DNA of 64,000 nucleotides, taken from contig OZ241339.1 of assembly GCA_965200235.1 (NCBI GenBank), positions 372,508 through 436,507 of the forward strand, written 5' to 3'. The translations under genes and the position numbers were made by a program. Positions within the stretch are counted from its first letter, which is position 1. Each line of letters begins with the position of its first letter. Of the stretch, positions 10,485 to 31,706 are shown piece by piece. Source of the stretch: Pseudomonadales bacterium (lineage in GTDB: Bacteria > Pseudomonadota > Gammaproteobacteria > Pseudomonadales > Azotimanducaceae). The notes under the pieces are model-generated. The model was not told where the DNA came from. It did not search any database and saw nothing but the letters and a program-made list of their open reading frames with translations.

Positions 10485-10528
10485 GAGAATGTGGCACTTT
10501 CTCTCGTCGAGGGAGCATTAGAAAACCT

Positions 10529-13186
10529 GTGGCAGGGATGCGACGTCAAACCATCATCACGCTCGGCCGTTTCGCCATGCGCGAGCTTCGCTTGCAAGCG
10601 GCGCGCGAGGCGTCGTCGGGCCTCTCGATACTCACCATCGAGCAATTCGTTGCGCGGCTCGCGGGCGGGTTCGTTCGCGCCATCGACAAGGACACGCTGC
10701 GCGCGGCCATTATGAGGGTGAAGGAGAACACTCACCTCGGCGAATTGGAACCTATCAAGTCGCTGCCTGGCTTTTCGCGCGCCGCGGCGGACACCTTCTG
10801 CAAAGCATGGCTTGCCGGCATCGACATCGCGGCCCGTCAAGGCGAGCATCCGCGCATCGCCGCCATTGCGAGCCTTGAGCAGGCGGTGCTCCGCGAACTG
10901 CCGGCGAATACGCTGACGCCCACCGAGCTTGCCAAGAGAGCGCTCGCACGAGTGCAGCACGTCCGCGCCATCTTTGGCGAGGTGGAAGTCAGAGGATTCA
11001 CCGAGCTGTCGCCGTGCTGGCGCGAGTTGATCGGGTCAGTCGCTGGCGAAACCAAGGTCACTTGGCACGCCGGTCCGCGCGCCGTGCCCGAGTGGCTCGA
11101 TGGCAACAGGCTAGAGATCACAACTTCTTGTCCTGAGCATCCGGGCGTCACTTGTGTGAGCGCCGCCACTGCCTACCACGAGGCGATCGAGGCGATGCGC
11201 TGGGCGCGAGCACTGATCGCGTCCAAGCAAGCGAAGCCCGAGGAGATTGCGATCGCAGCCACCGCGTGCGACGACTACGACGATCATCTGCTTGCGCTGC
11301 GCTCGGACGCCAATATCGACGTTCATTTCGCGCACGGCATTCCGGTCACGGCGACGCGCGACGGGCAGGCGTGCGCGGCGCTCGCCGAGCTTGTTCTGCG
11401 CGGACTCTCGCGCACGAGAATGCACCGGCTCGCGCGACTTCTCGGCAAGTCGCCGGGCCCTTTCGAGTCCTTGCCTGAGGACTGGCTCGGCGCCTTCCCT
11501 GAAAGCGCGCCGCTCACACGGCTTGAGAGCTGGCGAAACTTAATCCTCGCGCAGGGGGATCTCGACTATGGCGCGCAGGTGCAGGACATCGTGGCGATGA
11601 TTGATCGCGGCGCGGAATTCGCAGAAGACACGGGCACAGCCTTGCTGACGGGCAAGGCGCGCCTGATATGGCGGCAGGCGCTTCTTCTCGGCCCGCCCGA
11701 GTCTCTTGACCTCAGCATTGAACGCCTGCGCACCGACGATAGCTTTGACCCCGGCAATTCAATCGCTTGGGCGCCGGCGAGCTCGCTCGCCGCCGCACCA
11801 AGGCCGCATGTCTACCTGCTCGGCCTCAATTCGCAGCGCTGGCCGCATGTGGCTTTTGAAGACCGGCTGCTCTCCGATCACATCATCCCGACTTCGCAAC
11901 TCGATCCGCTGCCGGTGAATCTTGCCGATACCCGCGATTTCGAGACCATTCTTGCGACGAGCGCGGCGTCGGTGGTGCTCTCGCACGCGCGGCGAGATCA
12001 CGAAGGGCGGCTGCTTGGCCGCAGCGCGCTCCTCCAGGGACAACCGAAAGAGATGTATCTCGGACGCCATCGGGTGCCGGTCCACGCTTGTAGCGAAATC
12101 GATCGACTTGCCGCGCGCGTGAATGAATTTGCCGACATGGCGCCCGCGAGAATGGCCGCGGCGTGCTGGCGCGATTGGAACGATCGGCAGGACTTGACCG
12201 CGCACGATGGCATTGTCCAAGCCGATCACCCCATCATCAAAGCGATCTTGCAGCGCACCCAGTCGGCGGCTTCGCTGCGCCTGCTGCTGCGAAATCCAAT
12301 TGGTTTTCTGTGGCGCTATGGCCTCGGCCTGATCGAACCGCAGGCAAGCGAAGATCCCTTGATCCTCGATGCGATCGCCATGGGCGACCTGGTGCACGAG
12401 ATGCTTGAGCATTCGCTCGTCGCGCTTGAGGACAGTCAAGGTCTTGCCAATGTCAGCGAAGGCGATGTGCGCCAGGCGGTCGATCAAGCGTCAAGCGAGC
12501 TTGCCGAGCACTGGCAGTTGTATCGCGCGGTGCCGCCGAGAAAACTTTGGCAGCGTAGCTTGATGGAAGCGCGCAAGCAGAGTGAGCGCGGCCTGCTGCT
12601 TAGGCAAGCTGGCGCCGTCGCCCACGCCGAAGTGCCGTTTGGTGGTGCCGACATCAAGACCACACGCGAACTGCCGTGGGATGCGCAAGCGCCGGTTGAA
12701 ATCCCGCAAGCAGGCTTTCTCATTCAAGGCTATATCGACCGGCTCGATCTCGGCGCCGATGGCGCATCGGCATGGGTGCGAGACTACAAGACCGGCAAGA
12801 CGCCCAAGATCGGCGACGCGCGGCCGTTCGTGCTTGACAAGGGGCGCGAATTGCAGCGCTGCCTCTACGCGTATGCGGTGCGCGCCATGCTTGGGCCGCA
12901 GGTGGATATTCATGCCTCGCTGCACTATTTGCGCGACGATGTGGATCTTGCGCTCGCCGATGCCGAACTCGTGCTTGAGACCCTCTCGTTTTTTCTCGCA
13001 TCGGCGCGCACAAGCTTCCAAAGCGGTGTCTGTGTAATCGGCGCTGACGCTGGCGACACTTACGATGATCTTGCCTTCGCGTTGCCGGCCAACGCCGCCA
13101 ATATCTACTGCAAGGTCAAGCGCGACCTCGTGCGCGACAAAATGAACGAAGCTGGCAATGCTGCAGACGTGTGGGAAGCAGACTGA
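10529..13186 (+). CDS. AddB-like PD-(D/E)XK nuclease family protein (inactive-helicase-like N-terminus)
   Basis: 885-aa ORF with no clear Walker A. C-terminal RecB-type nuclease motif GYIDRLDLGADGASAWVRDYKTGK ... LQRCLYAYA. It sits 5' of, and overlaps (TGATG, 13184-13188), an AddA-like gene, as in addB-addA operons. An alternative ATG start exists at 10538. Confidence 0.7.
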   Translation: MAGMRRQTIITLGRFAMRELRLQAAREASSGLSILTIEQFVARLAGGFVRAIDKDTLRAAIMRVKENTHLGELEPIKSLPGFSRAAADTFCKAWLAGIDIAARQGEHPRIAAIASLEQAVLRELPANTLTPTELAKRALARVQHVRAIFGEVEVRGFTELSPCWRELIGSVAGETKVTWHAGPRAVPEWLDGNRLEITTSCPEHPGVTCVSAATAYHEAIEAMRWARALIASKQAKPEEIAIAATACDDYDDHLLALRSDANIDVHFAHGIPVTATRDGQACAALAELVLRGLSRTRMHRLARLLGKSPGPFESLPEDWLGAFPESAPLTRLESWRNLILAQGDLDYGAQVQDIVAMIDRGAEFAEDTGTALLTGKARLIWRQALLLGPPESLDLSIERLRTDDSFDPGNSIAWAPASSLAAAPRPHVYLLGLNSQRWPHVAFEDRLLSDHIIPTSQLDPLPVNLADTRDFETILATSAASVVLSHARRDHEGRLLGRSALLQGQPKEMYLGRHRVPVHACSEIDRLAARVNEFADMAPARMAAACWRDWNDRQDLTAHDGIVQADHPIIKAILQRTQSAASLRLLLRNPIGFLWRYGLGLIEPQASEDPLILDAIAMGDLVHEMLEHSLVALEDSQGLANVSEGDVRQAVDQASSELAEHWQLYRAVPPRKLWQRSLMEARKQSERGLLLRQAGAVAHAEVPFGGADIKTTRELPWDAQAPVEIPQAGFLIQGYIDRLDLGADGASAWVRDYKTGKTPKIGDARPFVLDKGRELQRCLYAYAVRAMLGPQVDIHASLHYLRDDVDLALADAELVLETLSFFLASARTSFQSGVCVIGADAGDTYDDLAFALPANAANIYCKVKRDLVRDKMNEAGNAADVWEAD

Positions 13187-16100
13187 TGGTCGCGCTGCCC
13201 GACAATGACGCTCGGCGCGATGCCATGCGCGTCCATGACCGCACCTATCTGGTCGAAGCTGGCGCCGGCTCCGGCAAGACAGCCGTGCTCGCCGGACGCA
13301 TCGTCATGCTGCTCGCCGCCGGCGTCAAGCCAAAGCACATCGCGGCGGTGACCTTCACGGAACTCGCTGCAAGCGAACTCTTGGTTCGTGTCCGCAAGTT
13401 TGTGGACGCGCTGATGGCCGGCAACACTCCGGATGAGCTTGTGCTCGCGCTGCCGGACAGCCTCGCCGACGCCGAGCGCACGCACCTCGAAGATGCGTTG
13501 AAGCGTTTCGACGAGATCACATGCTCGACGATTCACGGCTTTTGCCAGCAGCTCATCAAACCCTATCCGGTGGCGGCGGACTTGGACCCCGGCGCGAGCG
13601 TGATGGATCGCGATCAAGCGGATTTAAGCTTCTTGGAGACGCGCACGCAATGGCTGAAGGGGAGGCTCGACCTTGAAGAGGACACGCCTCTCGCCAGCCT
13701 TGTTTGGCATGACCAGGCGAAATCGATCACGCTGTTTGATGAGGTGCTGGACATCCTGCGAGAGCACCCCCACATGGAAGTGCGCCAGTCAGTCCGTTTT
13801 GATGACCAGTGGAACGAATTCAAGGATGCCGCGGCGTCGTTCTCGGCCTTCATGGAAGGATGCCCGGTGTCAGAGCCGGAAACCGCGCAGATCGTGCACG
13901 CACTTCGCGGGATCGCGGCTGGTCACCAGGCAGCTGAAGAAATCGAGCGCCTGCTCAACGTCATGTCGGTGGGCGACGACCTGACGCTGTTCACGAAGGA
14001 CCGCAAGCCTCGCAGCTACAGGATGAAAGGCAAGTGGGAGAAAGCTGCGCAACAGGACGGCCTGTCCAAGGCCGAAGGCGGGCGCTGCTTTGAGACCGCC
14101 AAGGCAATCTACGGAATGTGCCTTGAATCCTTGCAGGCCCTGCAAGCGATTGCTTGCTCGACACTGCTGCGCCTCATCGTCTCTGAACTCAAGCCTGTGA
14201 TTGACGCATATCACGCGCACAAGCGCCGCACGGCGCAGCTCGATTTTGACGATCTCATTCGTGGCGCGCGCGATCTGCTGTGCGGTCATGAGGACATTCG
14301 CGTTGCCCTCGGCCGTCGCTACACGCACGTCCTCGTCGATGAGTTTCAAGATACGAACCTGCTGCAGACGGAGATCTTCTGGCGGTTGTGCGGGGACGCC
14401 CCCTCGGATGCAGCGCGCGACGACTGGACAGCATTCCGTATTCGTCCGGGGGCGCTCTTCCTCGTCGGCGACCCAAAGCAGGCGATCTACCGATTTCGCG
14501 GCGCCGATGTCGCGGCCTATGTGCGAGCGCGCGCGCTGCTGCTTGGCGAGGATGAAGGCGCGCTGCTTCGCATCTCCACCAATTTTCGCTCGCTGCCGTC
14601 GATTCTTGCGCATGTGAACGAGAAGTTCGAAGAGCCCTTGTCGGTGGAAGCCGGACAGCCCGGGTTTACGCCGCTCGATGCGTTTCTCGAAGAGACCTCC
14701 GCGCAGAGTCTTGCGCGCCTCGACGTCACCGTCGAGCCGGACGAGCAGGGTAAGGTGTCCGTGGACAGTCAACGGCAAGCCGAGGCCGATGCGGTGGCGC
14801 TCGTGTGCGCGAAGCTGATCGGCAGTGAGATGCTGCCGGGTGACGATGCCGGGTCGCGAACAGTCAAGCCCGGTGACATCGCGCTGCTCGCGCCTTCCGG
14901 CACCGATCTTTGGCGCTACGAGGAAGCCTTGGAGCGGCTCGCTATTCCGGTCGCCACGCAAGCCGGCAAGGGTCTCTACCGACGCCAGGAAATTCAAGAC
15001 CTGATCGCGCTCACGCGCGTGCTCGCCGACAGTCGGGATACCCTTGCGCTTGGTGCGCTGCTGCGCGGGCCGCTGGTCGGACTCAGCGACGAGGCGCTGC
15101 TTGACATCGCCCTACATGTGCGCGGCGAAAGCGAGGATATACCGCGCCTGCGTCTCTTCATGGAACTCGAACAGATCGACAACAGCGAAGCTCGCGATGT
15201 GATCGGCAAACTGCAATTTCTCTACGGCAAGGCAGCAAGCACCACGCCGCACCATCTCATCTCGCAGGCGATCGATCTCCTGCATGTTCGTCCGATCCTC
15301 ATGCGCCGCCACGCTGGCCAGGCAACGCGCGTGCTCGCCAATGTGGACTTGTATCTCAGCATGAGCCGCGCCTATGCGGTGCGCGGATTGAAAGCCTTTG
15401 CCGAAGCCATGACCGCCGCATGGCACGACGAGCAGCGCGCGCCGGAAGGACGTCCCGACGCGCAGGAAGAGTCGGTTGCGCTGTTCACCATGCACGCGGC
15501 CAAGGGCCTCGAGTGGCGCATCGTAGTGCCGGTGAACACCATGACCCAAGTGCGATCCGCCGACGGACAGTTTGTTGACCGCGTCAACGGATACTTCTAT
15601 TGCAAGGCGTTCGGCACCAAGCCGCTCGGCTATGATGAGGCGCAGCAAGCAGAGCAAGACGAGCTTGATCGCGAGCGAGTGCGCCTCTGGTATGTGGCGA
15701 CGACGCGCGCGCGGGATTTGCTGGTGCTGCCGAATGTGATGGCGGATCGTAAGAGCAACGTGTGGTCGGGGGTCGTTCCGCTCGACATCGAGTCTCTGCC
15801 AGAGATCAATCTTGAAGAGTTGTCGCCCGAACTGCCCGCGGTTGAAGGCGAGCTCGTGAACGAACAGACGCGCGAAGTGTTCGCTGAGGAGGCGAAGATC
15901 ATTGCGCATGGTCATCGGCGCATTGCCTGGCGCAGTCCAAGCCGAGATGAAGACATTGCCGCGCCGCTTGCTTCGGAAGTTGAGGGTGAGGTGTTTGCCA
16001 ATGACGATGAGGCGTCTCCCCCCGCAGTCGATGGGCTTGACGTGCAAGGCGGACTGCAGCGCGGTCTGCTGATACACAAGCTCTTTGAAGAAGTGCTGAC

Positions 16101-16527
16101 CGGCGAGTGCCAAGAGAATGAAGCGGACTTGACCGCGCGCGCCGAAACGCTCATCGGCGAACTTGGGCGCACTGCGAGCGAGAACGCTGCCGATGGTCTG
16201 TCGCCCGCCGAACTCGCCGGATGCGTGCGACGCGGACTCGCGCTGCCGCAAGTTGCCGAATTACGACCGCGCCTCGTCGCAGAATGCAGCGTCTTCGGGT
16301 CGCGCATCGAAGCGGACACCGAGCTCATGTTCGCCGGTATTGCCGATGCCATTGCGTTCGACACCACGGGCGCGCCCGAAGTGGTCATCGATTGGAAGAC
16401 CGACGTTGACCCGCGGACAAGTCAACTCAAGCACTATGGCGAGCAGGTGCGCGCCTATCTTGAACTCACCGGCGCGAAGCGTGGGCTTGTTGTGCTGGTG
16501 ACCACAGGACGGGTGCTTGCGGTCTGA
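13186..16527 (+). CDS. AddA-like UvrD-family helicase with C-terminal RecB-type nuclease
   Basis: Helicase motifs: YLVEAGAGSGKTAVLAGRIV, HVLVDEFQDTNLLQTEIF, LFLVGDPKQAIYRFRGA, STNFRS, LFTMHAAKGLEWRIV, LWYVATTRARDLL. C-terminal nuclease: IADAIAFDTTGAPEVVIDWKTD ... YGEQVRAYLELT. The track ORF starts at GTG 13171; I prefer ATG 13186, which overlaps the upstream stop. Confidence 0.85.
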   Translation: MVALPDNDARRDAMRVHDRTYLVEAGAGSGKTAVLAGRIVMLLAAGVKPKHIAAVTFTELAASELLVRVRKFVDALMAGNTPDELVLALPDSLADAERTHLEDALKRFDEITCSTIHGFCQQLIKPYPVAADLDPGASVMDRDQADLSFLETRTQWLKGRLDLEEDTPLASLVWHDQAKSITLFDEVLDILREHPHMEVRQSVRFDDQWNEFKDAAASFSAFMEGCPVSEPETAQIVHALRGIAAGHQAAEEIERLLNVMSVGDDLTLFTKDRKPRSYRMKGKWEKAAQQDGLSKAEGGRCFETAKAIYGMCLESLQALQAIACSTLLRLIVSELKPVIDAYHAHKRRTAQLDFDDLIRGARDLLCGHEDIRVALGRRYTHVLVDEFQDTNLLQTEIFWRLCGDAPSDAARDDWTAFRIRPGALFLVGDPKQAIYRFRGADVAAYVRARALLLGEDEGALLRISTNFRSLPSILAHVNEKFEEPLSVEAGQPGFTPLDAFLEETSAQSLARLDVTVEPDEQGKVSVDSQRQAEADAVALVCAKLIGSEMLPGDDAGSRTVKPGDIALLAPSGTDLWRYEEALERLAIPVATQAGKGLYRRQEIQDLIALTRVLADSRDTLALGALLRGPLVGLSDEALLDIALHVRGESEDIPRLRLFMELEQIDNSEARDVIGKLQFLYGKAASTTPHHLISQAIDLLHVRPILMRRHAGQATRVLANVDLYLSMSRAYAVRGLKAFAEAMTAAWHDEQRAPEGRPDAQEESVALFTMHAAKGLEWRIVVPVNTMTQVRSADGQFVDRVNGYFYCKAFGTKPLGYDEAQQAEQDELDRERVRLWYVATTRARDLLVLPNVMADRKSNVWSGVVPLDIESLPEINLEELSPELPAVEGELVNEQTREVFAEEAKIIAHGHRRIAWRSPSRDEDIAAPLASEVEGEVFANDDEASPPAVDGLDVQGGLQRGLLIHKLFEEVLTGECQENEADLTARAETLIGELGRTASENAADGLSPAELAGCVRRGLALPQVAELRPRLVAECSVFGSRIEADTELMFAGIADAIAFDTTGAPEVVIDWKTDVDPRTSQLKHYGEQVRAYLELTGAKRGLVVLVTTGRVLAV

Positions 16528-16640: not shown

Positions 16641-17087
16641 ATGCAAGAGATCAGAATTTTCATCAACGACAAGCCTCGAGCCATCGTGGGTTTAGAGCAT
16701 AGTGTCGAGGCTATGCTTAAGGAAGGCGAATGCACAAGCGAGAATGGCGTATTGGTGACTAACGACGGTATCACCCATGACGACCCTGCTGAGATTGTTC
16801 GTATTGGCGATGGCGATAGGTTGAAAGTATTGCCGGTAGGCGGCGACCGCACCATTTGCTACCAAGTCAACGGCGAGGCCCAAACTACCGTTAGCAGCCC
16901 TTTGACTGTGGGGGAAATCCTTGAACGCGCTGGCGCGTCAGCTAGCGTCAATGTCAATGATCGAGCCAGCTACTATCTTGAGAACCTTGCGACTGAGCAA
17001 CGTTACGACGACCCCGATGCTGAAGTAGCAGTTTGCGAGGATGATCGATTTATAGCTGTGCATCGCGGCCCAGCACCCGTTGCATGA
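16641..17087 (+). CDS. tandem beta-grasp (multi-ubiquitin-like) protein
   Basis: 148 aa from ATG 16641 (GTG 16629 also possible). Two similar halves, IRIFINDKPRAIVG...DRLKVLP and ICYQVNGEAQTTVSSPLTVGEIL...RFIAVHRG. It ends PAPVA with no terminal GG. Its stop overlaps the next start (ATGA, 17084-17087), and it lies in an operon with E2-like and JAB-E1 genes. Confidence 0.65.
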   Translation: MQEIRIFINDKPRAIVGLEHSVEAMLKEGECTSENGVLVTNDGITHDDPAEIVRIGDGDRLKVLPVGGDRTICYQVNGEAQTTVSSPLTVGEILERAGASASVNVNDRASYYLENLATEQRYDDPDAEVAVCEDDRFIAVHRGPAPVA

Positions 17088-17461
17088 CGCCTATCACGAA
17101 GGTCTTGGCCGAGCTGCAAGAGCTAGGACACGCTGCGCAGTGTTGCCAGCCCGACGGTTTCGGGTATGTCCTTGCAGTATTCGAGTATCCAGTCGATTCA
17201 GGCCGGTTTCGTGGGCACAGATTTAGAGTGGGCATAGGCTTTCAGGAAGATGCGTATCCCGAGTATCCGCCACACTGGCTATGCGTCTCGTCCTTGTCTG
17301 ACAATAGGATCCCTCAGCATAGCGGATTCACATTTGAAGGTGCCGATTGGCGTGTGTTCAGCGTCCCGCCTAGCGATGTCTGGGATTCGTTGCCGACTTC
17401 GCAGAAGAATATGAAAACCTATCTTCGCTTGCACATGACTCGATTCTGGGATCAGGTGTGA
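17084..17461 (+). CDS. prokaryotic E2 (UBC-fold)-like protein
   Basis: 125-aa ORF with the UBC/RWD-like motif AYPEYPPHW followed by Cys (HWLCVSS). It is coupled to both neighbours by 4-nt overlaps (ATGA at 17084, GTGA at 17458). Confidence 0.6.
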   Translation: MTPITKVLAELQELGHAAQCCQPDGFGYVLAVFEYPVDSGRFRGHRFRVGIGFQEDAYPEYPPHWLCVSSLSDNRIPQHSGFTFEGADWRVFSVPPSDVWDSLPTSQKNMKTYLRLHMTRFWDQV

Positions 17462-18960
17462 AACACGAAGCCGTCATTCCCGAGCGCATCAATGATCGAG
17501 TCAGCGACTTGCTGCTGCGGCATGTTCGTGGCGGGAAGCGGCAAGAAGAGCTTTGTTTCGGTCTGTGGCGACCGAGCACCGGTGCAACCCGACGCACGTC
17601 TATTCTGTTCGACATCATTCCGCCTGAACCGGATGAACGTCGATTGCACGGAAACGCGAGCTTCACTCCCGAATATCTTACCCGCGCCGTGCGCCTTGCT
17701 TGCGATCGGAAAGCTGGCCTCGCCTTCATGCACAACCATCTCGCCCCAGGCTGGCAGGACATGAGTGAACCCGATATTGTTGCGGAGCGCGAACGCATAT
17801 CGCCCCCGGCTCGGGCGACCGGCTACCCCCTTCTCGGACTGACACTTGGCACAGATGGCAGTTGGAGTGGCCGACTCTGGCAGTGGAACGGCGGGAAGTT
17901 CAATCGCGTGTGGTGCGACAAGGTGCGCGTAGCAGGCAAGCGATTGCGGATTACCTTCAATGACAAAGCTATCCCGCCTCCTGCAAGGCGTTCCGTCCTG
18001 CAACGTACCATTGATACTTGGGGGGCAGGATGTCAAAACATCATCGCCCGCCTTCGTGTGGGTGTCGTGGGCGTAGGGAGTGTTGGTTCTATGGTCTCCG
18101 AGGCGCTCGCTCGAATGGGGGTTGAACGGTTGACACTTATCGATCCAGATAGAGTCGAGATGCATAATCTTGACCGCCTTGTACATGCTGGCATCGATGA
18201 TGTAGGGCGAGCTAAGGTAGAAGTCGCCGCGCATCGGCTGCGAGTGAGCGCAACCGCAGAGCGCTTTGATATTCGGACGTATCAACTGCCAATTGAGAAT
18301 GAGACGGCGCTACTTTCAGCCTTGGATTGCGACCTGCTCTTTTCCGCTGTTGACCGTCCGTTGCCGAAGGACTTGCTCAATCGGATCGCCTACGTGCATT
18401 GCATTCCGGTGATCTCTGGTGGCGTGTTTGTGGGCAAGAAGAGTGACGGCACCTTAGGTCAGGCGGCATGGAGCGTAGCTATCGTCGGCCCATCACGGCG
18501 CTGTCTTCGCTGTGACGGACAATACAACTCTTCAGAGGTCGTTTTGGAACGCGACGGGTCGTTCGACGACCCAAGTTATGTTACCAATGCAACTGGCCGC
18601 GAGCAGGCGAACCAGAACGTCTTTCCTTTTTGCACGAATCTTGCGAGCCTTATGGTGATCGAAATGGCGAGACTCATCGTGGCAGCGGATTGGTGGCCGG
18701 ATGTCGGTGGCAAGCTGCATTACAGTCTCATTCCAGGAAGGCTTCAACACGAACAAGGAATGTGTCAGCCGAATTGCTCGATACGTGAAACAGAGGCCCT
18801 CGGCGATGCGTATCAGTACCCATTTGTACAGCCTGCGGACACACGACAAGCACCGACGCGCCAAACTCGAGTCGGACTCGCTAAAATCTGGCGTTTTATA
18901 AGGGACTTATATACAAAAGTTGACAGCCCCCCCCACCATTGCGAACCGCCCCAGAGTTGA
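17458..18960 (+). CDS. JAB/JAMM peptidase - ThiF/E1 adenylyltransferase fusion protein (3' end altered by IS insertion)
   Basis: N-terminal JAMM signature: EELCFGLW ... MHNHLAPGWQDMSEPD. E1 Rossmann domain: RVGVVGVGSVGSMVSEALARMGVERLTLIDPDRVEMHNLDRL ... FSAVDRPLPKDLLNRIAYVHCIPVISGG, plus a CxxC (CLRCDG). The last about 19 codons (from about 18902) are read from the inserted tnpB element. Confidence 0.85.
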   Translation: MKHEAVIPERINDRVSDLLLRHVRGGKRQEELCFGLWRPSTGATRRTSILFDIIPPEPDERRLHGNASFTPEYLTRAVRLACDRKAGLAFMHNHLAPGWQDMSEPDIVAERERISPPARATGYPLLGLTLGTDGSWSGRLWQWNGGKFNRVWCDKVRVAGKRLRITFNDKAIPPPARRSVLQRTIDTWGAGCQNIIARLRVGVVGVGSVGSMVSEALARMGVERLTLIDPDRVEMHNLDRLVHAGIDDVGRAKVEVAAHRLRVSATAERFDIRTYQLPIENETALLSALDCDLLFSAVDRPLPKDLLNRIAYVHCIPVISGGVFVGKKSDGTLGQAAWSVAIVGPSRRCLRCDGQYNSSEVVLERDGSFDDPSYVTNATGREQANQNVFPFCTNLASLMVIEMARLIVAADWWPDVGGKLHYSLIPGRLQHEQGMCQPNCSIRETEALGDAYQYPFVQPADTRQAPTRQTRVGLAKIWRFIRDLYTKVDSPPHHCEPPQS

Positions 18961-18973
18961 GTAAAATAGCACC

Positions 18974-20200
18974 GTGAGATACACCCATCGCTCAACCCGT
19001 TACCGCTTACTTCCGTGTACGCATGCGAAGCATCAATTGTTATGGCAGGTGACCGGTGCCTGTATTTGGGTATGGAACCGAATGCTCGCGTACAACGAAG
19101 AGGAATACGCATGGCATGAACGGATTCCGTGGGTCCTGCCAAAGCCATCGACGCGGTTTGAATCAACCGCAAAGATATTCACAAAGCTCCGTGCGAAGAC
19201 AGACTGGCTGCAGTCACTGCCGTTCGGTGCTGTTCGTCATACGCTTCAGTACCAAGCACGTGCATGGGAGAAGTATTTTAAGAGGCAAGGTGGTCGTCCG
19301 CAGTACAAGTCAAGGTATCGGACGCGGGCGGTGACGTTCCCTGAACCCGGACATTTTCAGTTGTCGGGAAGTAGCCTCCGCTTGCAGAAACTTGGATGGT
19401 TCCGCCTTGCTCGACGAGGCAACGACCCATACCGTGACTACGAACCACGTGCGGTGACGATCAAACGAGAATGCGGACGATGGTATGCGGTGATTCGGTA
19501 TCGGGTGCCCGCACACGAAGTCGAACACATTGACGATGGTCACGCAATCGGTGTAGACATGAATGTGGGACAAGTTGCATGCAGCGACGGCGAGATCGTT
19601 CGGCTTGACCGTGAACGCCTTGAAAGGCTTGAATGCCGGAAGCGTCGATATCAGCGCCGCATGGCACGACAGGTGATCGGGTCAAACCGAAGGGAAGTGA
19701 CAAAGCAACGTCTATCGAACGTGTATCGGAACATTCGCTGCTATCGAGACAACTGGCACCACCACACGTCAAAGGCGATTGCTGAGAAAGCCGGTACGGT
19801 CGTTGTCGAAAAGCTCAACACCAAAGGCATGACGGCTTCAGCGAAAGGTGATGTCGTCACCCCCGGAAAGAATGTCACGCGGAAAGCTGGCTTGAACCGT
19901 GAGATTCTCAACACCGGATGGTCAAGTCTCAAACACAAGCTCAGCTACAAGTCGGCACGACTCATTGAAGTGAACCCGCAATACACGTCCCAGACGTGCT
20001 CCCGATGCGGGTTTGTGGATGCGAGAAACAGACCCACACAAGCCAAGTTCAAGTGCTTGGCGTGTGGGCATACAGACAATGCTGATGTGAATGCGGCATT
20101 GAATATATTGGCGTCGGGGACTGGCGCAACTAGACGTGGAGGTGGCGAGGTCACTCGGCCTGTGAAGCGTCAAGAAGTAGCGGAACGAGGGTCAACGTGA
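18974..20200 (+). CDS. tnpB: TnpB RNA-guided endonuclease (IS605 OrfB family)
   Basis: 408-aa ORF. RuvC-I is AIGVDMNVG and RuvC-II is TVVVEKLN. The Zn finger is QTCSRCGFVD ... FKCLACGHTDNADVNAALNILASG, which includes the RuvC-III Asp. The N-terminus YRLLP...WNRMLAYNEE is typical of TnpB. Confidence 0.9.
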   Translation: MRYTHRSTRYRLLPCTHAKHQLLWQVTGACIWVWNRMLAYNEEEYAWHERIPWVLPKPSTRFESTAKIFTKLRAKTDWLQSLPFGAVRHTLQYQARAWEKYFKRQGGRPQYKSRYRTRAVTFPEPGHFQLSGSSLRLQKLGWFRLARRGNDPYRDYEPRAVTIKRECGRWYAVIRYRVPAHEVEHIDDGHAIGVDMNVGQVACSDGEIVRLDRERLERLECRKRRYQRRMARQVIGSNRREVTKQRLSNVYRNIRCYRDNWHHHTSKAIAEKAGTVVVEKLNTKGMTASAKGDVVTPGKNVTRKAGLNREILNTGWSSLKHKLSYKSARLIEVNPQYTSQTCSRCGFVDARNRPTQAKFKCLACGHTDNADVNAALNILASGTGATRRGGGEVTRPVKRQEVAERGST

Positions 20201-20234
20201 CCTGTCAAGTTTCGTATATAAATCCCTTTTATAA
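20050..20234 (+). ncRNA. expected omega-RNA (reRNA) scaffold of TnpB, overlapping the tnpB 3' end and right end
   Basis: Pure inference from the known TnpB architecture, in which the omega-RNA spans the ORF 3' end to the right end. No structure was verified. The boundaries are approximate. Confidence 0.25.
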
Positions 20235-20249
20235 AGGGGCTGCGACCTG

Positions 20250-21488
20250 ATGGCTAGCGTCACAACCCTCAATCTGCGGGACATCCGATGCTTCGCGGGT
20301 GAGCAGTCTGGGCGACTCGCCCGAATCACCTTGCTCGTGGGCGCAAACGGTGCTGGCAAGTCCACTTTTCTTGGTTGCTACAAGACGCTGACTCGTTTAG
20401 CGAACCTGCACAAGCTTGATGACGAGAACTACTTTGACGAAGCGCCGTTTGAAATGGGTGGTTTTGACACCATTGCGCGAACAGGTTGTGATGCATTCTC
20501 TTTGGGCGCTGAGTTTGCCGATCACTGCCACGAATCTCTGCGGTTTGACTTCGCAAGGGCAAATGGAAGCGAGCCTATCGAGCAGAAAGTTCGCCTTGGC
20601 TGGAACGATGACTATATGGACATTAGCCGGCGCGCTGCCGCTACTGAATCGTTTCTTATCCTAAATTCTCGATTTTCCTTCGCTCTGAATCGAGCATACA
20701 TTTCTTACGCGCAGGTCTCGACCTGGCTGGCACGGGCGGTGAAGTACGGACATATGCCGTTCAATGGCGATGTCGCGTCGTTCCGGCGGAGCAGTAGATC
20801 AGTGACCGAAGATGATGTGATTGCCTTTAGTCGATTTATATCACTCCTGCGGTCTGGCTTGCCGTTGCCAGTTGACGAGGCGTTCAGTGTGCATGCGCTC
20901 GATCCACACTTGGAACGTCGACAACGCACGTATTTGTTGCAGCCCCAGCTCTTGCCTGCGCTAGACCCGGAAGCACTAGCTTTTCTGGCAGACCTCGGCA
21001 AGCGCTTGGAGCTTTGGACTGATGTGAGAACCAAGGGCGAAGCAAACGGGTTTGCGATTCTTGTGGACTCGGTAGCGGGTACGCATAACCTCATGGATGT
21101 CGGCTTTGGTGTGCACAGTATGTTGCCACTTGCGAGAGCTATCTACGAGCGGCCCGCACATGCAATGCTCCTGCTACAGCAGCCGGAAGTTCACCTGCAT
21201 CCCGAAGCTCAAGCGAATCTCGCGCAATTCATGGTGGAGAGCCAGCAAGGGTTTCTCATTGAGACACATAGCGATCATTTCTTGGATCGATTTCGCATAT
21301 CCGTCATGCGAAAGCAATTGTCGACGGATGATCTCTCTATCCTCTACTTTGAGCCCGTGAATGACGGCAGCGCATCTGTTATTCATCACATCGCAGTTGA
21401 CGAGTCCGGCAATCTGATCAACGTTCCGAGGAACTTTCGATCATTCTTCGACCGCGAGATCAACGCGCTTCTTGGCTTTGAAGATTAG
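20250..21488 (+). CDS. AAA/ABC-type ATPase (AAA_15/21 with DUF3696-like C-terminus)
   Basis: Walker A is LLVGANGAGKSTFLG. Signature/Walker B region: MLLLQQPEVHLHPEAQANLAQFMVE ... GFLIETHSDHFLDRF. The C-terminal tail ...LINVPRNFRSFFDREINALLGF resembles DUF3696 ATPases. The family name is from memory. Confidence 0.75.
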   Translation: MASVTTLNLRDIRCFAGEQSGRLARITLLVGANGAGKSTFLGCYKTLTRLANLHKLDDENYFDEAPFEMGGFDTIARTGCDAFSLGAEFADHCHESLRFDFARANGSEPIEQKVRLGWNDDYMDISRRAAATESFLILNSRFSFALNRAYISYAQVSTWLARAVKYGHMPFNGDVASFRRSSRSVTEDDVIAFSRFISLLRSGLPLPVDEAFSVHALDPHLERRQRTYLLQPQLLPALDPEALAFLADLGKRLELWTDVRTKGEANGFAILVDSVAGTHNLMDVGFGVHSMLPLARAIYERPAHAMLLLQQPEVHLHPEAQANLAQFMVESQQGFLIETHSDHFLDRFRISVMRKQLSTDDLSILYFEPVNDGSASVIHHIAVDESGNLINVPRNFRSFFDREINALLGFED

Positions 21489-21527
21489 TTATGATGAGAG
21501 TGGTGGCAGGGCCCGGCTTGCGGATTA

Positions 21528-21772
21528 GGGCGTGTTAACACTATGCACGTTGACGCTGCCGAGACCCGTTTTCCGCCAGACAAGGCCGAGCGAGCGCTGT
21601 GTGGCCTACCCCACATGAGCGAGCGAGAACGAAGGCTGGCGGAAAACGGGGCCGGCCCGAAGGGTTGTCGCCTGAGCAAGAGCCGGAGCGAACACTTTGG
21701 GGCATGCGAATGGGCTTTTTCGGCTCTTGCACAGGCGACAACAGCGTCGGTGGGCATAGTGTTAACACGCCC
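21528..21772. mobile_element. MITE family A, copy 1 (about 245 bp, perfect TIR, TA flanks within TTAG/CTAG)
   Basis: TIR GGGCGTGTTAACACTATGC (21528-21546) and its exact reverse complement at 21754-21772. The interior is highly self-complementary. A second, inverted copy with about 90% identity lies at 31458-31704. Confidence 0.8.
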
Positions 21773-21856
21773 TAGATGGAATGCCTCAGCCACTTCAAGA
21801 ATGGACACGTCCTAATATGTGCCAGCGTTCCGCTCGAATCTGGAGGCTCTTCAAGA

Positions 21857-22300
21857 GTGTGTACCAAAACCATACTTGATGCCAGCCTGTTCTCCCGATT
21901 TGGCGACAATGAAATGAAGGCTTGGAGACAGTGGATCGAGAGTGGCGATGGCGTACTCGCCTACACGACGACCGGACGATTTGGACGGGAATTGCGGAAC
22001 AACTGGATGATCAGAAACTATGTGTTCGGTCAACGTAGAGGGCGTTCTGCGTTAGTCAAGAAGCCGGAATTGGATGAGGCCGCTGCGGAGCTACAGGGAC
22101 GCGAGTTTAGTTCCAATGATCAGCATGTACTTGAGCTCGCGCTGGCGAGTAGCGCCCAGGTGTTATGCACCGGTGACGAAGCTTTGAAGCAGGACTTCCT
22201 CAAGAATCTGCCAAAGTTGCGTCGGGGCGTGTATCCGCACAATGCGTCGCGCAAGGCCCGTGAAAAATTCCTGTCGGCGTATCGGTGTAGCGCAGGCTGA
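21857..22300 (+). CDS. PIN-like domain protein (putative nuclease)
   Basis: Track ORF is 21776-22300. I prefer GTG 21857, preceded by GGAGG (21842-21846); ATG 21776 directly abuts the MITE end. Acidic residues sit in PIN-like positions: TILDAS near the N-terminus, SSNDQHVLELA and LCTGDEAL. Confidence 0.5.
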   Translation: MCTKTILDASLFSRFGDNEMKAWRQWIESGDGVLAYTTTGRFGRELRNNWMIRNYVFGQRRGRSALVKKPELDEAAAELQGREFSSNDQHVLELALASSAQVLCTGDEALKQDFLKNLPKLRRGVYPHNASRKAREKFLSAYRCSAG

Positions 22301-22363
22301 GCTTGCTCGCGGCGGTAGTTGCAATCGAGACGTAGGAGTCATTCAAGGCATAAGAGGTTGCTG

Positions 22364-25237
22364 ATGGCTGGTAATTCCACAGAAGTCGCATACAACTTTG
22401 CGCTCGCTAAGCTGCTTCGTCTTGAAGGGTTGAACGCCCAAGCGGAGCAGCGCAAGAAGTTCGGGTCTGCACGCGGACAAGCCGATGTGCTGATCGACTT
22501 CGATGACTACGCGGTTGTCATTGAGGCGGAGTTTGGCAGCCCCGGCAAGAAAGATGCCGACAAGCGATTCCCTCGCGAGGCGCCTGCCGTGGTCAACGGA
22601 CTCGAAGTGCGCTTGGTCGTTGCCCTTGGCTACCCGGCGCACTTGGCGCAGTTGCCTGAAAGCGATTCTGAATCCAATTTGTCCGAGCGGAGCGACCTGC
22701 GAATCGCCTACCGATACTACGGTGAAGATTGGGGAGAAGAATCTTCGACGTCGGTGGCGGCTCTTGCGGCAACCTTGCGGGATTATTGGGTGCAGAGCGA
22801 TAACGGCATCGGTATTGAAGAGATCGTTGAGCAAGCCTCCGAGGCGATTCGGCTAGCGGCGTCGGTCTTGGAAAAAGTGGATGCGGACGGAGAGGAAAAT
22901 GCCGACGGCCCCTCGACCAAAGCGCTCATCTGGCTGAACGCACTGCTGTTTCAAGAATTGCTGGCGCGGCATTTCGATCACTCCGAGCTGCCTGCCGAAC
23001 ACGCTGATAAGAAGATCCGGCGCCCGGACCCGGAACGCGGCGCCGAACACTTGCTGTCCCAATGGATCGAACTGCTCGAAATCAACTGGTGGCCCATCTT
23101 TCATATCGCCAAAGAGACCTTGAAGACGACACCTGCGCCGAACGACTATCAAGCGCTTGCTATCTTGAAGCGTGCGGCGGCGGAGATTGCCGAGACAGGT
23201 GCCATCCGCAGGCACGATGTCGCTGGCCGTATTTTTCATCGCCTGCTGGACTCGCGGAAGTTCCTAGCGACGAACTACACGACAATTCCAGCAGCCATCA
23301 TGCTGGCGGGACTTGCGTTTGATGAGCGCAGCGAAAGCTGGCGTGGGATTGATTTCTCGAGTCCTGCGAGCGTGAAGGCGCTGAAGGTCGTAGACCCCGC
23401 CTGCGGCAGCGGCACTTTGCTGATGGCGGCGACTCAGGAAATTCTCAAACGTGCGCGCAGGACCGACGATGCCAGTTTCGACGAGCGGGCGGTGGTGCGC
23501 GCGGTTCTTGAGGAAGCGCTGTATGGATTCGACGTGGTGCCGGCCGCCGTGCATCTGGCCGCCTCAACGCTGTGCATGGCGGAGGCGCGCCAACTCATTC
23601 AGGACATGCAATTGTGGCGGTTGCGACATGAAGTCGTAGAAGGATTGCCGAGGCTCGGCAGCTTGGATTTTCTCGCTACCTCCCCAAGCAAGGGGTTTGC
23701 GAAACCGCTCGGCCTGTTTGAGGAGGAAGGTGTCTCCACGAGAGTGTCGGGGTCGGCGGAGCAAAGAGAACAGATGGACATGCCGGGCAAGTGCCATTTG
23801 GTGATCGCCAATCCGCCGTATACGAGGGCGGGCGGGCCTGGAAACGAAGACAATAGCAATTGGAATCCTATCTTTGGCTCGCTGCTTGATGGCAAGGATG
23901 CCGACACGATGAAGCGCGCCTTGGAGAAGGCGCTGAGCCCAACGGCGGCAAGCATGTATGCAGGGCTCGGTTCGGCCTTTGTCGAGCTTGCTAACCAGCA
24001 TCTCGATCACCAGGGTCGCCTTGCCTTCGTGCTGCCCGGCACGCTGCTATCTGGGACTCGCTGGGCGAGCGTTCGTCAGCTCCTGCTCGGCAACTACTGC
24101 ATTGACTGGGTGGTTGTCAGTCACGACGGGCGCAATCGCAGCGCGCGCAAAGAGTTGCCGGGGAGAAGATGGATTGCATTTTCGGAATCCACGCGCATCG
24201 CCGAAACACTGGTCGTTGCGACCAAGAACGCTGGCGACGCCAGGCAGCATCATCAAGTGCGATTTGTGAATCTATTGCGCAATCCCGACGAGCCGCTTGA
24301 GGCACTTGCGCTCACGCAACGGCTTCTGGCACTGGATGAGGAGGGCGTGCCTTCGGAGCCTGTGTCGATCAGGATTGGTGATAGGAATTGGGGGAGTGTC
24401 GTTGCTGTTCCACAAACAGAACTTGATCAAGGCCCATGGTCGTATGCGTCTCTTGTACAGCCAGAACTTTCGAGCACGAGGCTGCGGCGTTCGTCTTCAT
24501 CCACACACTTCTTGGATAATATTCCGAGAGTGGAGTTGCAGAACCTTGCAGATTTTGGTCCGTATGAGATGCAGATTAAGAACCCTGATCAGGGACTGTT
24601 TACGATCATTCAATCGACAGAGACTTTGCATGCGGGCATTCCCGCGCTTTGGCACCATAAATCGACCTACAACAACACGCTTCTGGCGGCATCGGATGCA
24701 CGATTGCAAAGGCGGAGTGACAAGGATTCGAAGAAGCAGGAGGCCATGCTTGCGAAGCAGCGTCGTCTTCATCTCGCCCGTGAACTTGGGTGGGCCCCGC
24801 AAAAACTGGCCTGTGTACTAACCGAGACACCGATGCTTGGCGTTAGGTCTTGGGTAACGATTCTATTGCATCATGGTGTTGGCGGCGCTGAGGAAGCGCT
24901 GTGCCTTTGGTTCAATTCGACACCTGGCGTGTTGATGCGGGTGCTGCATGGGGGGCGACCCTATCTTGGTAGGTCTACGATCACGCATGAGCTTGCACGC
25001 AGTTTGCCAGTGCTCGATGTTGGCAAGCTTGATCAGCAGCGACTGAAGGCATCGGTAGACATCTTCCATAGTCTCAAGAACCGTCCGCTGCAAGGATTTA
25101 CAGACATTGCAACCGATCCCGTGCGGAGAGAACTGAATAGCCGCTTTGCCAAAGAGGTACTCGACGTGGACCCCAACCTGATTGAGGCATTGACGCAAAA
25201 GCTGGCGCTGGAACCCACCATGCACGTTCGGCACTGA
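22364..25237 (+). CDS. large gamma-class N6-adenine DNA methyltransferase, possible fused type IIG/IIL restriction-modification enzyme
   Basis: Motif I is VVDPACGSGTLLMAA and motif IV is VIANPPYTRAGG. The N-terminus has a PD-(D/E)XK-like string (GQADVLIDFDDYAVVIEAEFG). The protein is about 957 aa. An upstream in-frame ATG at 22319 is also possible. Confidence 0.65.
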   Translation: MAGNSTEVAYNFALAKLLRLEGLNAQAEQRKKFGSARGQADVLIDFDDYAVVIEAEFGSPGKKDADKRFPREAPAVVNGLEVRLVVALGYPAHLAQLPESDSESNLSERSDLRIAYRYYGEDWGEESSTSVAALAATLRDYWVQSDNGIGIEEIVEQASEAIRLAASVLEKVDADGEENADGPSTKALIWLNALLFQELLARHFDHSELPAEHADKKIRRPDPERGAEHLLSQWIELLEINWWPIFHIAKETLKTTPAPNDYQALAILKRAAAEIAETGAIRRHDVAGRIFHRLLDSRKFLATNYTTIPAAIMLAGLAFDERSESWRGIDFSSPASVKALKVVDPACGSGTLLMAATQEILKRARRTDDASFDERAVVRAVLEEALYGFDVVPAAVHLAASTLCMAEARQLIQDMQLWRLRHEVVEGLPRLGSLDFLATSPSKGFAKPLGLFEEEGVSTRVSGSAEQREQMDMPGKCHLVIANPPYTRAGGPGNEDNSNWNPIFGSLLDGKDADTMKRALEKALSPTAASMYAGLGSAFVELANQHLDHQGRLAFVLPGTLLSGTRWASVRQLLLGNYCIDWVVVSHDGRNRSARKELPGRRWIAFSESTRIAETLVVATKNAGDARQHHQVRFVNLLRNPDEPLEALALTQRLLALDEEGVPSEPVSIRIGDRNWGSVVAVPQTELDQGPWSYASLVQPELSSTRLRRSSSSTHFLDNIPRVELQNLADFGPYEMQIKNPDQGLFTIIQSTETLHAGIPALWHHKSTYNNTLLAASDARLQRRSDKDSKKQEAMLAKQRRLHLARELGWAPQKLACVLTETPMLGVRSWVTILLHHGVGGAEEALCLWFNSTPGVLMRVLHGGRPYLGRSTITHELARSLPVLDVGKLDQQRLKASVDIFHSLKNRPLQGFTDIATDPVRRELNSRFAKEVLDVDPNLIEALTQKLALEPTMHVRH

Positions 25238-31316: not shown

Positions 31317-31457
31317 ACTCTGGCAGGACTTTGCGGGAACCGAGTTGCGACTTTTGCTCGAATCCGTGCGGGAGATTGGCGCTTCGTCCTGTAGGACGGC
31401 CTGTCGGTGGCCGCCGCCAACGTGTGGCTGAAACGGGTCGGGCGTGAGGTTTCTTTA

Positions 31458-31704
31458 GGGCGTGTTCACACTATGCCCGCCGACGCTGTTGTCTCCTGAG
31501 CAAGAGCCGAAAAAGGTGAATCACGTGCCCCAAATGGGTCGCTCCGGCTCTTGCTCAGGCGAAAACCCTTCGGGCCGGCCCCGTTTTCCGCCAGCCTTCG
31601 TTCTCGCTCACTCATGGGGGGGGTAAGCCCCACAGCGCTCGCTCGGCCTTGTCTGGCGGAAAACGGGTCTCGGCAGCGTCGGCGGGCATAGTGTGAACAC
31701 GCCC
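31458..31704. mobile_element. MITE family A, copy 2 (inverted relative to copy 1)
   Basis: TIR GGGCGTGTTCACACTATGCCC (31458...) and its complement ending at 31704. It is about 90% identical by eye to the reverse complement of 21528-21772. TA flanks lie at 31456-31457 and 31705-31706. Confidence 0.8.
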
Positions 31705-31706
31705 TA

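Follow-up and report, generated by a model that had tools for sequence, protein, structure and literature searches.

A predicted Bub-like conjugation module joined to an ABC ATPase and a PIN-like nuclease in a bacterial cassette interrupted by two mobile elements

Bacterial pathways for the conjugation of ubiquitin-like (Ubl) proteins, such as Bil, Bub and the Cap2/Cap3 branch of CBASS, are a recent and active topic, and the biological output of the Bub operons is still unknown. In the Bub operons, the JAB domain of BubCD cleaves the BubAB protein, the activating enzyme (E1) works through Tyr370 in place of a catalytic cysteine, the conjugating enzyme (E2) uses serine and histidine, and conjugation proceeds via oxyesters (preprint of Ye, Gong, Chambers and Corbett 2024). 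According to the same preprint, JAB is encoded by a gene of its own in the Bil operons, and their E1 combines two adenylation domains in tandem with a cysteine domain; these operons employ cysteine chemistry and encode no ATPase or nuclease. Stand-alone E2s are also found in the operons classified as type 6e (Iyer et al. 2006). For the Menshen system, a published model predicts that a tetramer of the ATPase NsnB clamps the PIN-like N-terminal domain of NsnC through DUF3696, by analogy with the restraint of a nuclease by an ABC ATPase in PARIS and Septu (PMC12065111). Here we describe a cassette of five genes, for a Ubl protein, an E2-like protein, a fusion of a JAB domain with an E1, an ABC-type ATPase and a PIN-like nuclease, that is located in a 64,000-nucleotide (nt) stretch of contig OZ241339.1 from a Pseudomonadales bacterium (assembly GCA_965200235.1; this whole stretch is referred to as the window).

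In the window, the cassette is interrupted by an insertion element that carries tnpB and by a miniature inverted-repeat transposable element (MITE). From the composition of the cassette, we infer, with a probability of about 0.6, that conjugation of the Ubl protein controls the ATPase-gated PIN nuclease in defense. The genes and the two insertions are as follows (coordinates are those of the window; aa, amino acids; ORF, open reading frame; "mechanical" denotes the program-made ORF call):

16641-17087, plus strand: Ubl gene, tandem beta-grasp protein of 148 aa from ATG 16641 (mechanical ORF from GTG 16629)
17084-17461, plus strand: E2-like gene, 125 aa, with overlaps of 4 nt both at the Ubl stop and at the E1 start
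17458-18901, plus strand: native part of the JAB-E1 gene (JAMM domain, residues ~1-170; ThiF adenylation domain, ~183-410)
18902-20226, plus strand: tnpB-only insertion element of 1,325 bp, recognized by its inverted ends and tnpB matches
20250-21488, plus strand: ABC-type, NsnB-like ATPase gene, 412 aa (Pfam AAA_21 and AAA_15)
21528-21772: MITE of 245 bp in the ATPase-PIN spacer, flanked by TA on each side, recognized by its inverted ends and a second copy
21857-22300, plus strand: PIN-like nuclease gene, 147 aa from GTG 21857 (mechanical ORF from ATG 21776, abutting the MITE)

Conservation of the five-gene order

A word-indexed search with the JAB-E1 protein retrieves 1,312 clusters at E<=1e-5, with proteins of about 490 aa and identities of about 60-75% among the 120 best. 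In the three closest relatives of the window locus (L011-L013), the genes encode, in the same order, proteins of 145, 128, 489, 410 (AAA_21/AAA_15) and 152 aa, and the E1 and ATPase genes overlap by 8 nt. A scan of one genome per species across 185,579 species, with patterns derived from the E1 alone, identified 74 loci, in which homologs of the window proteins were counted by tblastn:

ATPase homolog anywhere in the locus: 71/74
ATPase directly downstream of the E1 on the same strand: 70/74
E2-like homolog: 69/74
Ubl homolog: 67/74
PIN-like homolog: 66/74
all five genes: 61/74

Contig ends truncate several of the incomplete loci, and two others belong to distant E1 relatives (42-43% identity) with other neighbors; these two, together with one locus that has a fragmentary E1 match, are the only complete loci that lack the ATPase. 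The junctions between the genes are tight, with the E2-like and E1 genes overlapping by 4 nt in nearly all loci, the E1 and ATPase genes overlapping by 4, 1 or 8 nt in most, and the ATPase and PIN-like genes separated by 8 to 17 nt. No other conserved flanking gene was detected among the 74 loci, any other neighbor being present in at most 8 of them. The identities to the window proteins also co-vary (Spearman coefficient 0.73 for E1 and ATPase, 0.66 for ATPase and PIN-like protein, and 0.55 for the third pair of these three larger proteins). Given the tight junctions, the conserved order, the lack of any other recurrent neighbor and the co-varying identities, the five genes are one mobile module and not a chance neighborhood. 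The overlap of the E1 stop with the ATPase start by 1-8 nt in most loci further implies co-transcription and, probably, coupled translation of these genes. An earlier note on this stretch of DNA had postulated that, before two insertions, a Ubl-E2-JAB/E1-ATPase(-PIN) array formed a single packed operon; the 61 loci with all five genes bear this out, and in the element-free loci L011-L013, the E1 gene is followed by those for the ATPase and then the PIN-like protein, with the identical overlap.

The same order could arise if two independent systems were located side by side, namely, a Bub-like cassette without BubE and a self-sufficient ATPase-PIN pair of the PARIS, Septu or Menshen type, brought together by the clustering of defense genes. 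Each of the two modules indeed has separately named relatives, and in one locus (L031:9537-11311), the ATPase and PIN-like genes have been inverted together with respect to the E1 gene. Furthermore, a homologous pair is encoded alone, without Ubl, E2 and E1 genes, on a 4.6-Mb contig (ERZ26167216, L093:5628-7456), with 27% identity to the window ATPase (E 6e-35) and 36% identity to the window PIN-like protein; because this pair stands alone, the ATPase and the PIN-like protein appear to comprise a self-contained module that was joined by the Ubl module. Set against this are the order and strand that are fixed in 70 of the 74 loci across at least ten phylum-level groups, the overlap of the E1 and ATPase genes in most loci, and the correlated divergence of the genes. 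Moreover, no locus of this E1 clade contains another candidate effector, such as DUF6527, and the ATPase is missing from complete loci only in the two distant E1 relatives and the locus with the fragmentary E1. Two merely adjacent systems are therefore an improbable explanation, and the linkage of Ubl conjugation to the nuclease pair is the preferred one.

Several loci depart from the standard arrangement in other ways. In L023 (10735-12606), the ATPase and PIN-like genes are separated by an insertion of about 1.7 kb, and L016 and L045 have only a truncated match to the ATPase. The symbiont genomes that carry the cassette seem to be rich in mobile elements that disrupt it. The solitary pair in L093 adjoins RecA-like and ImuB-like genes, with a HEPN/nucleotidyltransferase pair nearby.

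Mobile elements within the cassette

The insertion near the 3' end of the E1 gene can be reconstructed at the nucleotide level from the following features:

18894-18901: left 8-bp target-site duplication, TTTTATAA (direct repeat)
18974-20200: tnpB, ORF of 408 aa (NCBIfam guided_TnpB, 9.5e-66; Pfam OrfB_IS605 and Cas12f1-like_TNB)
20227-20234: right 8-bp target-site duplication, TTTTATAA (direct repeat)
20235-20257, plus strand: original E1 3' end, now displaced (..KGLRPDG and TAG), overlapping the ATPase start (assigned from the reconstruction and the DNA match to L011-L013)

The octamer TTTTATAA occurs exactly twice in the 64-kb window, both strands counted, against a chance expectation of 0.10. 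Immediately inside the two copies are the 25-nt inverted ends of the element (18902-18926, GGGACTTATATACAAAAGTTGACAG, and 20202-20226, CTGTCAAGTTTCGTATATAAATCCC), which, when the octamers are added, extend to arms of 33 nt with 85% complementarity. Deletion of 18902-20234 yields ...TGG CGT TTT ATA AAG GGG CTG CGA CCT GAT GGC TAG in the E1 frame, so that the reconstructed JAB-E1 consists of 488 aa with the C-terminus ...IWRFIKGLRPDG (WRFIKGLRPDG), and the stop codon TAG (20255-20257) shares the sequence ATGGCTAG with the start codon ATG (20250) of the ATPase gene in an overlap. Removal of both TTTTATAA copies shifts the E1 frame and eliminates the stop, and retention of both causes the E1 to terminate early at ...WRFIIL* with the overlap gone. 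Both variants were rejected, the first for its frameshift and the second for its premature stop and missing overlap; the relatives' ...DG* ending and the ATGGCTAG overlap are reproduced solely by the model of an 8-bp target duplication. In the element-free locus L011, the junction DNA (TGGCGGTTTTTCAAAAGGTTGCTGACCGATGGCTAGAG) aligns base for base with the reconstructed one (TGGCGTTTTATAAAGGGGCTGCGACCTGATGGCTAGCG) and includes the identical ATGGCTAG overlap. The closest element-free E1s (P0002 and P0003, 75% and 74% identical, both 489 aa) end in ...MWRFFKRLLTDG and ...VWRHFRRMLTNG, respectively, that is, with the same length beyond the WR and the same (D/N)G ending as in the reconstruction. No empty site was found among close strains: the tnpB element and the MITE are both present in all ten contigs with about 99% identity, whose sources are sponge metagenome studies and two NCBI assemblies.

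The insertion site lies seven codons (21 nt) upstream of the E1 stop. As a consequence, the last 7 residues of the E1 are exchanged for 19 foreign ones encoded by the element (RDLYTKVDSPPHHCEPPQS*), with the stop codon (18958-18960) supplied by the element as well, and the ATPase gene is moved 1,333 bp away from the E1 gene. The earlier note had placed the repeats and the deletion product at these very coordinates, all of which check out. Its reconstructed E1 end with the TAG/ATG overlap is now supported by the same overlap in relatives, its estimates of about 19 foreign codons and a displacement of 1.3 kb agree with the counts above, and the MITE that it recognized between the ATPase gene and the PIN-like ORF is corroborated by the inverted ends and the second copy described below.

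The foreign tail of the E1 varies between strains that are about 99% identical (...DSPPHHCEPPQS in the window and ...DSPPTIANRPRVE in P0001), which suggests that this tail is probably neutral and not under selection. The frame of the tail differs after ...DSPP between the window and P0001 (L001 and relatives), within 18925-18960, so that the E1 products are 500 and 501 aa long; a change in the length of the C run at approximately 18926-18934 is the suspected cause.

Classical IS200/IS605 elements have no inverted ends and produce no target duplication. The element in the window encodes a clear TnpB yet has 25-nt inverted ends and an 8-bp repeat and carries no tnpA. This combination, unlike that of the classical elements, suggests mobilization in trans by a different transposase, of the DDE type. 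The element is present in a single copy in the window. A second tnpB element is found in a homologous cassette from another phylum, in a Rhodothermales metagenome-assembled genome (OY760427.1, L055:6146-7620), where it is inserted downstream of the Ubl stop and ahead of the E2 start; its TnpB is 42% identical to the one in the window, its ends are similar (GGGAGTTATAT... and ...ATATAATTCCC), and CATAATTG is present on either flank. The two thus represent a family of tnpB elements that have inverted ends and generate 8-bp duplications, and this family has struck gene junctions of the operon twice.

The MITE in the ATPase-PIN spacer has inverted ends of 33 nt, with the TA flanks included, and contains internal hairpins with arms of 22 nt (95% complementarity) and 15 nt (100%). 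A second, TA-flanked copy with about 93% identity is located at approximately 31456-31706 in the opposite orientation; it lies just downstream of an ORF for a YhgA-like protein (Transposase_31; 30300-31316, minus strand). In L001 and L010, the match to the window ends at the right end of the MITE, near 21775, and such breaks in related assemblies are to be expected if the MITE is a multi-copy repeat. In the region of 16-23 kb, scans against Rfam and for promoters and terminators detected nothing above chance except for a promoter-like site upstream of tnpB (18939-18967), and no terminator-like site was predicted on the plus strand within the tnpB element or the MITE.

These insertions raise the question whether the locus in this particular genome is a decaying, inactive remnant, a scenario that is compatible with any functional reading of the family. 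Both the native last 7 residues of the E1 and the overlap with the ATPase gene are gone, its foreign tail drifts between nearly identical strains, the strong hairpins of the MITE perhaps block read-through into the PIN-like gene, and in one related assembly (L004), positions 21650-22018 are absent. Expression could be reduced by the loss of the overlap and by the MITE, rich in hairpins, that precedes the PIN-like gene. All the same, five intact ORFs are retained here as well as in the related contigs, which stem from several samples, the element is inserted in the orientation of the operon so that read-through is possible, no plus-strand terminator-like site is predicted within it or the MITE, and conservation in the E1 family is lowest over the last ~35 residues. 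On balance, inactivity of this copy is a realistic concern, albeit a rather unlikely one. Regardless of the state of this copy, the undoing of a mobile-element insertion in silico recovers an operon architecture that is hidden from ordinary annotation of the genome, and the role proposed for the family is a link between Ubl conjugation and the nuclease pair.

Components and predicted function

The start of the Ubl gene is taken at 16641, in agreement with the gene callers, which begin the identical gene at the equivalent position. In the alignment of 40 homologs, the Ubl family has the invariant C-terminal motif G-x-T/A-P-V-A, in which G147, P150, V151 and A152 are invariant. Most of the Ubl genes stop after the terminal alanine, some add 2-13 variable residues, and in seven cases, the protein continues in frame into the E2. 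A profile search with the concatenated Ubl, E2 and PIN sequences retrieved nothing but these seven true Ubl-E2 fusions (P0125-P0131; ...TPVA, linker, E2). The fact that TPVA is followed by nothing, by a short variable tail or by an in-frame E2, as in BubAB, suggests that the Ubl protein is a precursor trimmed by the JAB domain, in which case the mature protein would expose alanine rather than glycine. Pfam matches are to Multi_ubiq (12 of the 40 members) and DUF348 (10 of the 40). The predicted structure of the fused homolog P0125 (pLDDT 84.6), which is not the window protein itself, matches bacterial multi-ubiquitin proteins (8u38, 9cd2, 9d5b and 9d5a); in the Foldseek search, the top bacterial matches, from Bub and Bil operons, have E values of 1.5e-6 to 1.8e-5, and ISG15 is also retrieved, at about 1e-6.

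The protein encoded by the second gene is probably an E2. It contains the motif YPEYPPH and, across 36 homologs, has no invariant cysteine but an invariant serine (S93) and two invariant histidines (H64 and H117). [quoted passage not shown] The sequence matches are weak: UQ_con and Prok-E2_E are detected in few members, the Prok-E2_E match reaches 3.8e-4 in a distant relative, and the hhalign probability is 66%. Comparison of the E2-like, Ubl and PIN-like profiles with the sequences of solved structures produced no meaningful match. Likewise, nothing is detectable at the sequence level between the Ubl and E2 proteins of this family and BubA and BubB, so that S93, H64 and H117 are not aligned with S333 and H335 of BubB.

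In the JAB-E1 protein, the ThiF domain is readily recognized (Pfam ThiF, 3.4e-32), and a profile of 40 family E1s finds the Citrobacter BubCD (9ea4_A) as the best solved relative (E 4.7e-22), ahead of TcdA, MccB and eukaryotic E1s, in an alignment that spans both domains (query 66-330, chain 67-319). The JAMM residues E30, H92-x-H94, S103 and D106 are invariant in the family, with E30, H92, H94 and D106 corresponding to E28, H91, H93 and D104 of BubCD. The cysteine pairs C349/C352 and C436/C440 are also invariant and likely form a zinc site; between C352 and C436 there is no invariant cysteine, and two tyrosines, Y356 and Y374, are invariant across the family. The C-terminal half of the E1 shows no match among the sequences of solved structures. 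When the cassette was analyzed with PADLOC 2.0, the ATPase was the sole component recognized, apart from weak matches of the E1 to Cap2 ('E1-E2') models.

The ATPase contains an intact Walker A motif (GxNxxGKS) as well as LLQQPEVHLHP and ETHSDH. In PADLOC, NsnB ranks first (1.6e-36 with the window protein, 4e-34 to 3e-44 with relatives), followed by PDC-M55A, HEC-03B, AriA, Old and GajA. AAA_15 and AAA_21 are detected in 37/37 ATPase members and DUF3696, which is the C-terminal domain in NsnB, in 11/37, the window protein itself not reaching E 0.01 for the latter.

For the PIN-like protein, homologs align only from residue 28 of the long ORF, so that the true start is probably GTG 21857, which is preceded by GGAGG at 21842-21846, and not ATG 21776; an identical 147-aa product is on record. 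Among 41 sequences, D8, D88 and D113 are invariant and E45 and D107 nearly so, and thus the acidic pattern of the PIN fold, as in VapC-like nucleases, is conserved. The Pfam matches are weak (PIN in 20/41, PIN_9 in 11/41 and PIN_3 in 8/41), and the top Foldseek matches of the predicted fold are VapC toxins (probability 0.97-1.0, TM ~0.5). Given that the catalytic residues are retained and no additional domain is present, this protein might be both the adaptor and the effector. Every member of the family begins with Met-Cys (21857-21862 in the window), and a cysteine close to the C-terminus (in RRRC) is nearly invariant; possible roles of these cysteines include a metal site, a disulfide and acceptance of the Ubl protein.

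In the proposed mechanism, the JAB domain would trim the Ubl precursor to expose the invariant ...TPVA C-terminus, and the E1 would adenylate the Ubl protein and hand it to the E2-like protein. The chemistry is predicted to be of the Bub type, via oxyesters, considering the fused JAB-E1, the E2 without a conserved cysteine, the E1 without a conserved cysteine between the cysteine pairs and the invariant Y356 and Y374. The ATPase and the PIN-like protein would form a complex of the Menshen/PARIS/Septu type in which the ABC ATPase restrains the nuclease. Conjugation of the Ubl protein during infection, to a phage protein or to a component of the ATPase-PIN complex, would then control the release or activation of the nuclease, and the JAB domain would reverse the mark. 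The tagging module would thus take the place of the Menshen sensor NsnA, and the ATPase-PIN pair that of BubE. Attachment of the Ubl protein to the ATPase or to the N-terminal cysteine of the PIN-like protein is a speculative route.

Several considerations weigh against this scheme. The family is known here from sequences and predicted models alone. The E2 fold draws on weak sequence signals and a predicted secondary structure, and the fold search with the fusion model yielded Ubl matches alone in its top 50. The PIN model was built from an alignment of 4 sequences (pLDDT 77.7), with one of five models confident and TM ~0.5. The alignment with BubCD ends at residue 330, short of the crossover loop, which makes the equivalence of Y374 with BubCD Y370 a guess. 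An ATPase-anchored scan of metagenomes returned five short contigs, with generic P-loop patterns dominating, and accordingly, the association counts are anchored in the E1 only. As the solitary pair in L093 illustrates, the ATPase and PIN-like protein could work alone, and their tie to the tagging module could be loose. Finally, the operon in the window genome may be impaired by the insertions.

The 74 genome loci come almost entirely from metagenome-assembled genomes, and the identity of their E1s to the one in the window is 50-68%. The record titles include Acidobacteriota, Gemmatimonadota, Latescibacterota, Binatia, Alpha- and Gammaproteobacteria, Rhodothermales, Spirochaetia, Poriferihabitans and Palauibacter; judging from lineage and project names, we take most of the carriers to be symbionts of sponges or other marine invertebrates. 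That the E1 is still 50-68% identical across phyla points to repeated horizontal transfer within this habitat. Type I restriction-modification genes adjoin the cassette in L011 and L013, and in the window a gene for a type IIG/PglX-like methyltransferase does so. A role in defense fits the relatives of the ATPase, the patchy distribution across phyla and the restriction-modification neighbors.

Alternatively, the cassette might not be directed against phages at all and might function in stress response, RNA turnover, proteostasis or the symbiotic lifestyle. To judge by lineage names such as Poriferihabitans, Palauibacter, Latescibacterota and Binatia, sponges or other marine invertebrates host nearly all of the carriers, the near-identical contigs derive from sponge metagenome studies, a search of viral contigs revealed no copy of the E1, and the biological role of the Bub operons themselves is unproven (Ye et al. 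2024). However, the best matches of the ATPase (NsnB, PDC-M55A, HEC-03B, AriA, Old and GajA) are all defense ATPases, and PIN nucleases gated by ABC ATPases are typical effectors of abortive infection. The patchy spread across phyla at 50-68% identity, with variable neighbors that often belong to restriction-modification systems, is also what would be expected of mobile defense modules. A function outside defense is accordingly considered improbable, and the control of the nuclease by Ubl conjugation in the course of infection is favored.

Going further, the cassette might represent an undescribed class of Ubl-based immunity, with cysteine-free chemistry of the Bub type and a Ubl protein ending in alanine that directly licenses a PIN nuclease gated by an ABC ATPase, and with horizontal transfer through the microbiomes of sponges and marine invertebrates accounting for its spread to at least ten phylum-level groups. 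This broader proposal is put forward as a tentative one that is somewhat short of an even chance. The association of a Bub-like module with an obvious effector pair makes it testable whether conjugation switches the nuclease on or off. It also implies that a module of the NsnB-NsnC type can be driven by a wholly different upstream module, in support of the mix-and-match view of defense systems. The family is large, well conserved and concentrated in uncultured marine symbionts, and defense catalogs, which are built mostly from cultured bacteria, probably miss it.

In the window, other large genes surround the cassette. Directly after the PIN-like gene (22319-25237), there is a gene for an Eco57I/N6_Mtase protein of 972 aa that matches PglX and type IIG models weakly; in L011 and L013, this position is occupied by a type I restriction-modification locus. 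The region directly upstream (5349-16527) encodes a fusion of DEAD-box and UvrD-type helicases (1,711 aa), an AddB-like PD-(D/E)XK protein (885 aa) and an AddA-like helicase-nuclease (1,118 aa) that scores far under the AddA and RecB equivalog cut-offs. This trio could be a repair complex or another defense module, and it is not conserved beside the cassette in other genomes. Farther downstream (32434-56262, plus strand) is a giant ORF of 7,942 aa with Calx-beta matches, probably a huge surface or adhesion protein.

Comparison with described systems

By sequence and predicted fold, the tagging half of the cassette is closest to Type I Bub (6E), and the ATPase-PIN half is closest to NsnB-NsnC of Menshen. 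With Type I Bub (formerly 6E.1 or 'DUF6527'; type 6e of Iyer et al. 2006), the cassette shares the JAB domain fused to the N-terminus of a single-domain ThiF E1, the multi-beta-grasp Ubl protein, the E2 without a conserved cysteine and the order Ubl-E2-JAB-E1. The differences are that the Ubl and E2 proteins, fused in BubAB, are separate in the window and in most members (with the 4-nt overlap of their genes), fusions being confined to P0125-P0131, and that the mature Ubl protein of Type I Bub ends in glycine, whereas this family ends in the invariant alanine. Furthermore, the BubE/DUF6527 serine protease has no Pfam match in the window cassette or its neighbors, and the E1 gene is instead followed by those for the ABC ATPase and the PIN-like protein.

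Menshen (NsnABC) similarly encompasses an NsnB-like ATPase followed by a small protein with a PIN-like fold, but its sensor NsnA (ParB/DUF262) is absent from the window cassette and does not recur at related loci. In addition, NsnC combines an inactive PIN-like N-terminal domain with a C-terminal effector, whereas the PIN-like protein of the window retains the acidic residues and is apparently active, comprises only ~150 aa and has no second domain.

The relationships to other systems appear more distant. Bil (BilABCD) is also an operon of Ubl, E2, E1 and JAB genes with a two-beta-grasp, ISG15-like Ubl protein, but in the window, JAB and one ThiF domain are parts of the same 488-aa protein. 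The type II CBASS (Cap2/Cap3) possibly follows a similar logic, with E1/E2 and JAB as a regulatory addition to an effector pathway; the window cassette differs in that it has no CD-NTase and no E1-E2 fusion and includes a dedicated Ubl protein. PARIS (AriA-AriB), Septu (PtuA-PtuB) and Gabija (GajA) share with it the pairing of an AAA_15/AAA_21 ABC ATPase with a nuclease; however, their nucleases are of the TOPRIM or HNH type in place of PIN, and the pair in the window is coupled to a Ubl conjugation module.

The earlier note had regarded the architecture as one not known from a described system, and no description of Ubl, E2 and JAB-E1 combined with an ABC ATPase and a PIN protein was found in the searchable full-text literature, in which subscription papers are only partly covered so that a prior mention is possible. 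The domain assignments of that note likewise stand, namely, JAB, the E1 (ThiF), the Ubl fold, the ABC-type ATPase and PIN, the last through weak Pfam matches and a VapC-like predicted fold. Since the two halves are related to Type I Bub/6E and to NsnB-NsnC of Menshen, respectively, what appears to be new is the combination of a Bub-like module with a Menshen-like effector pair.

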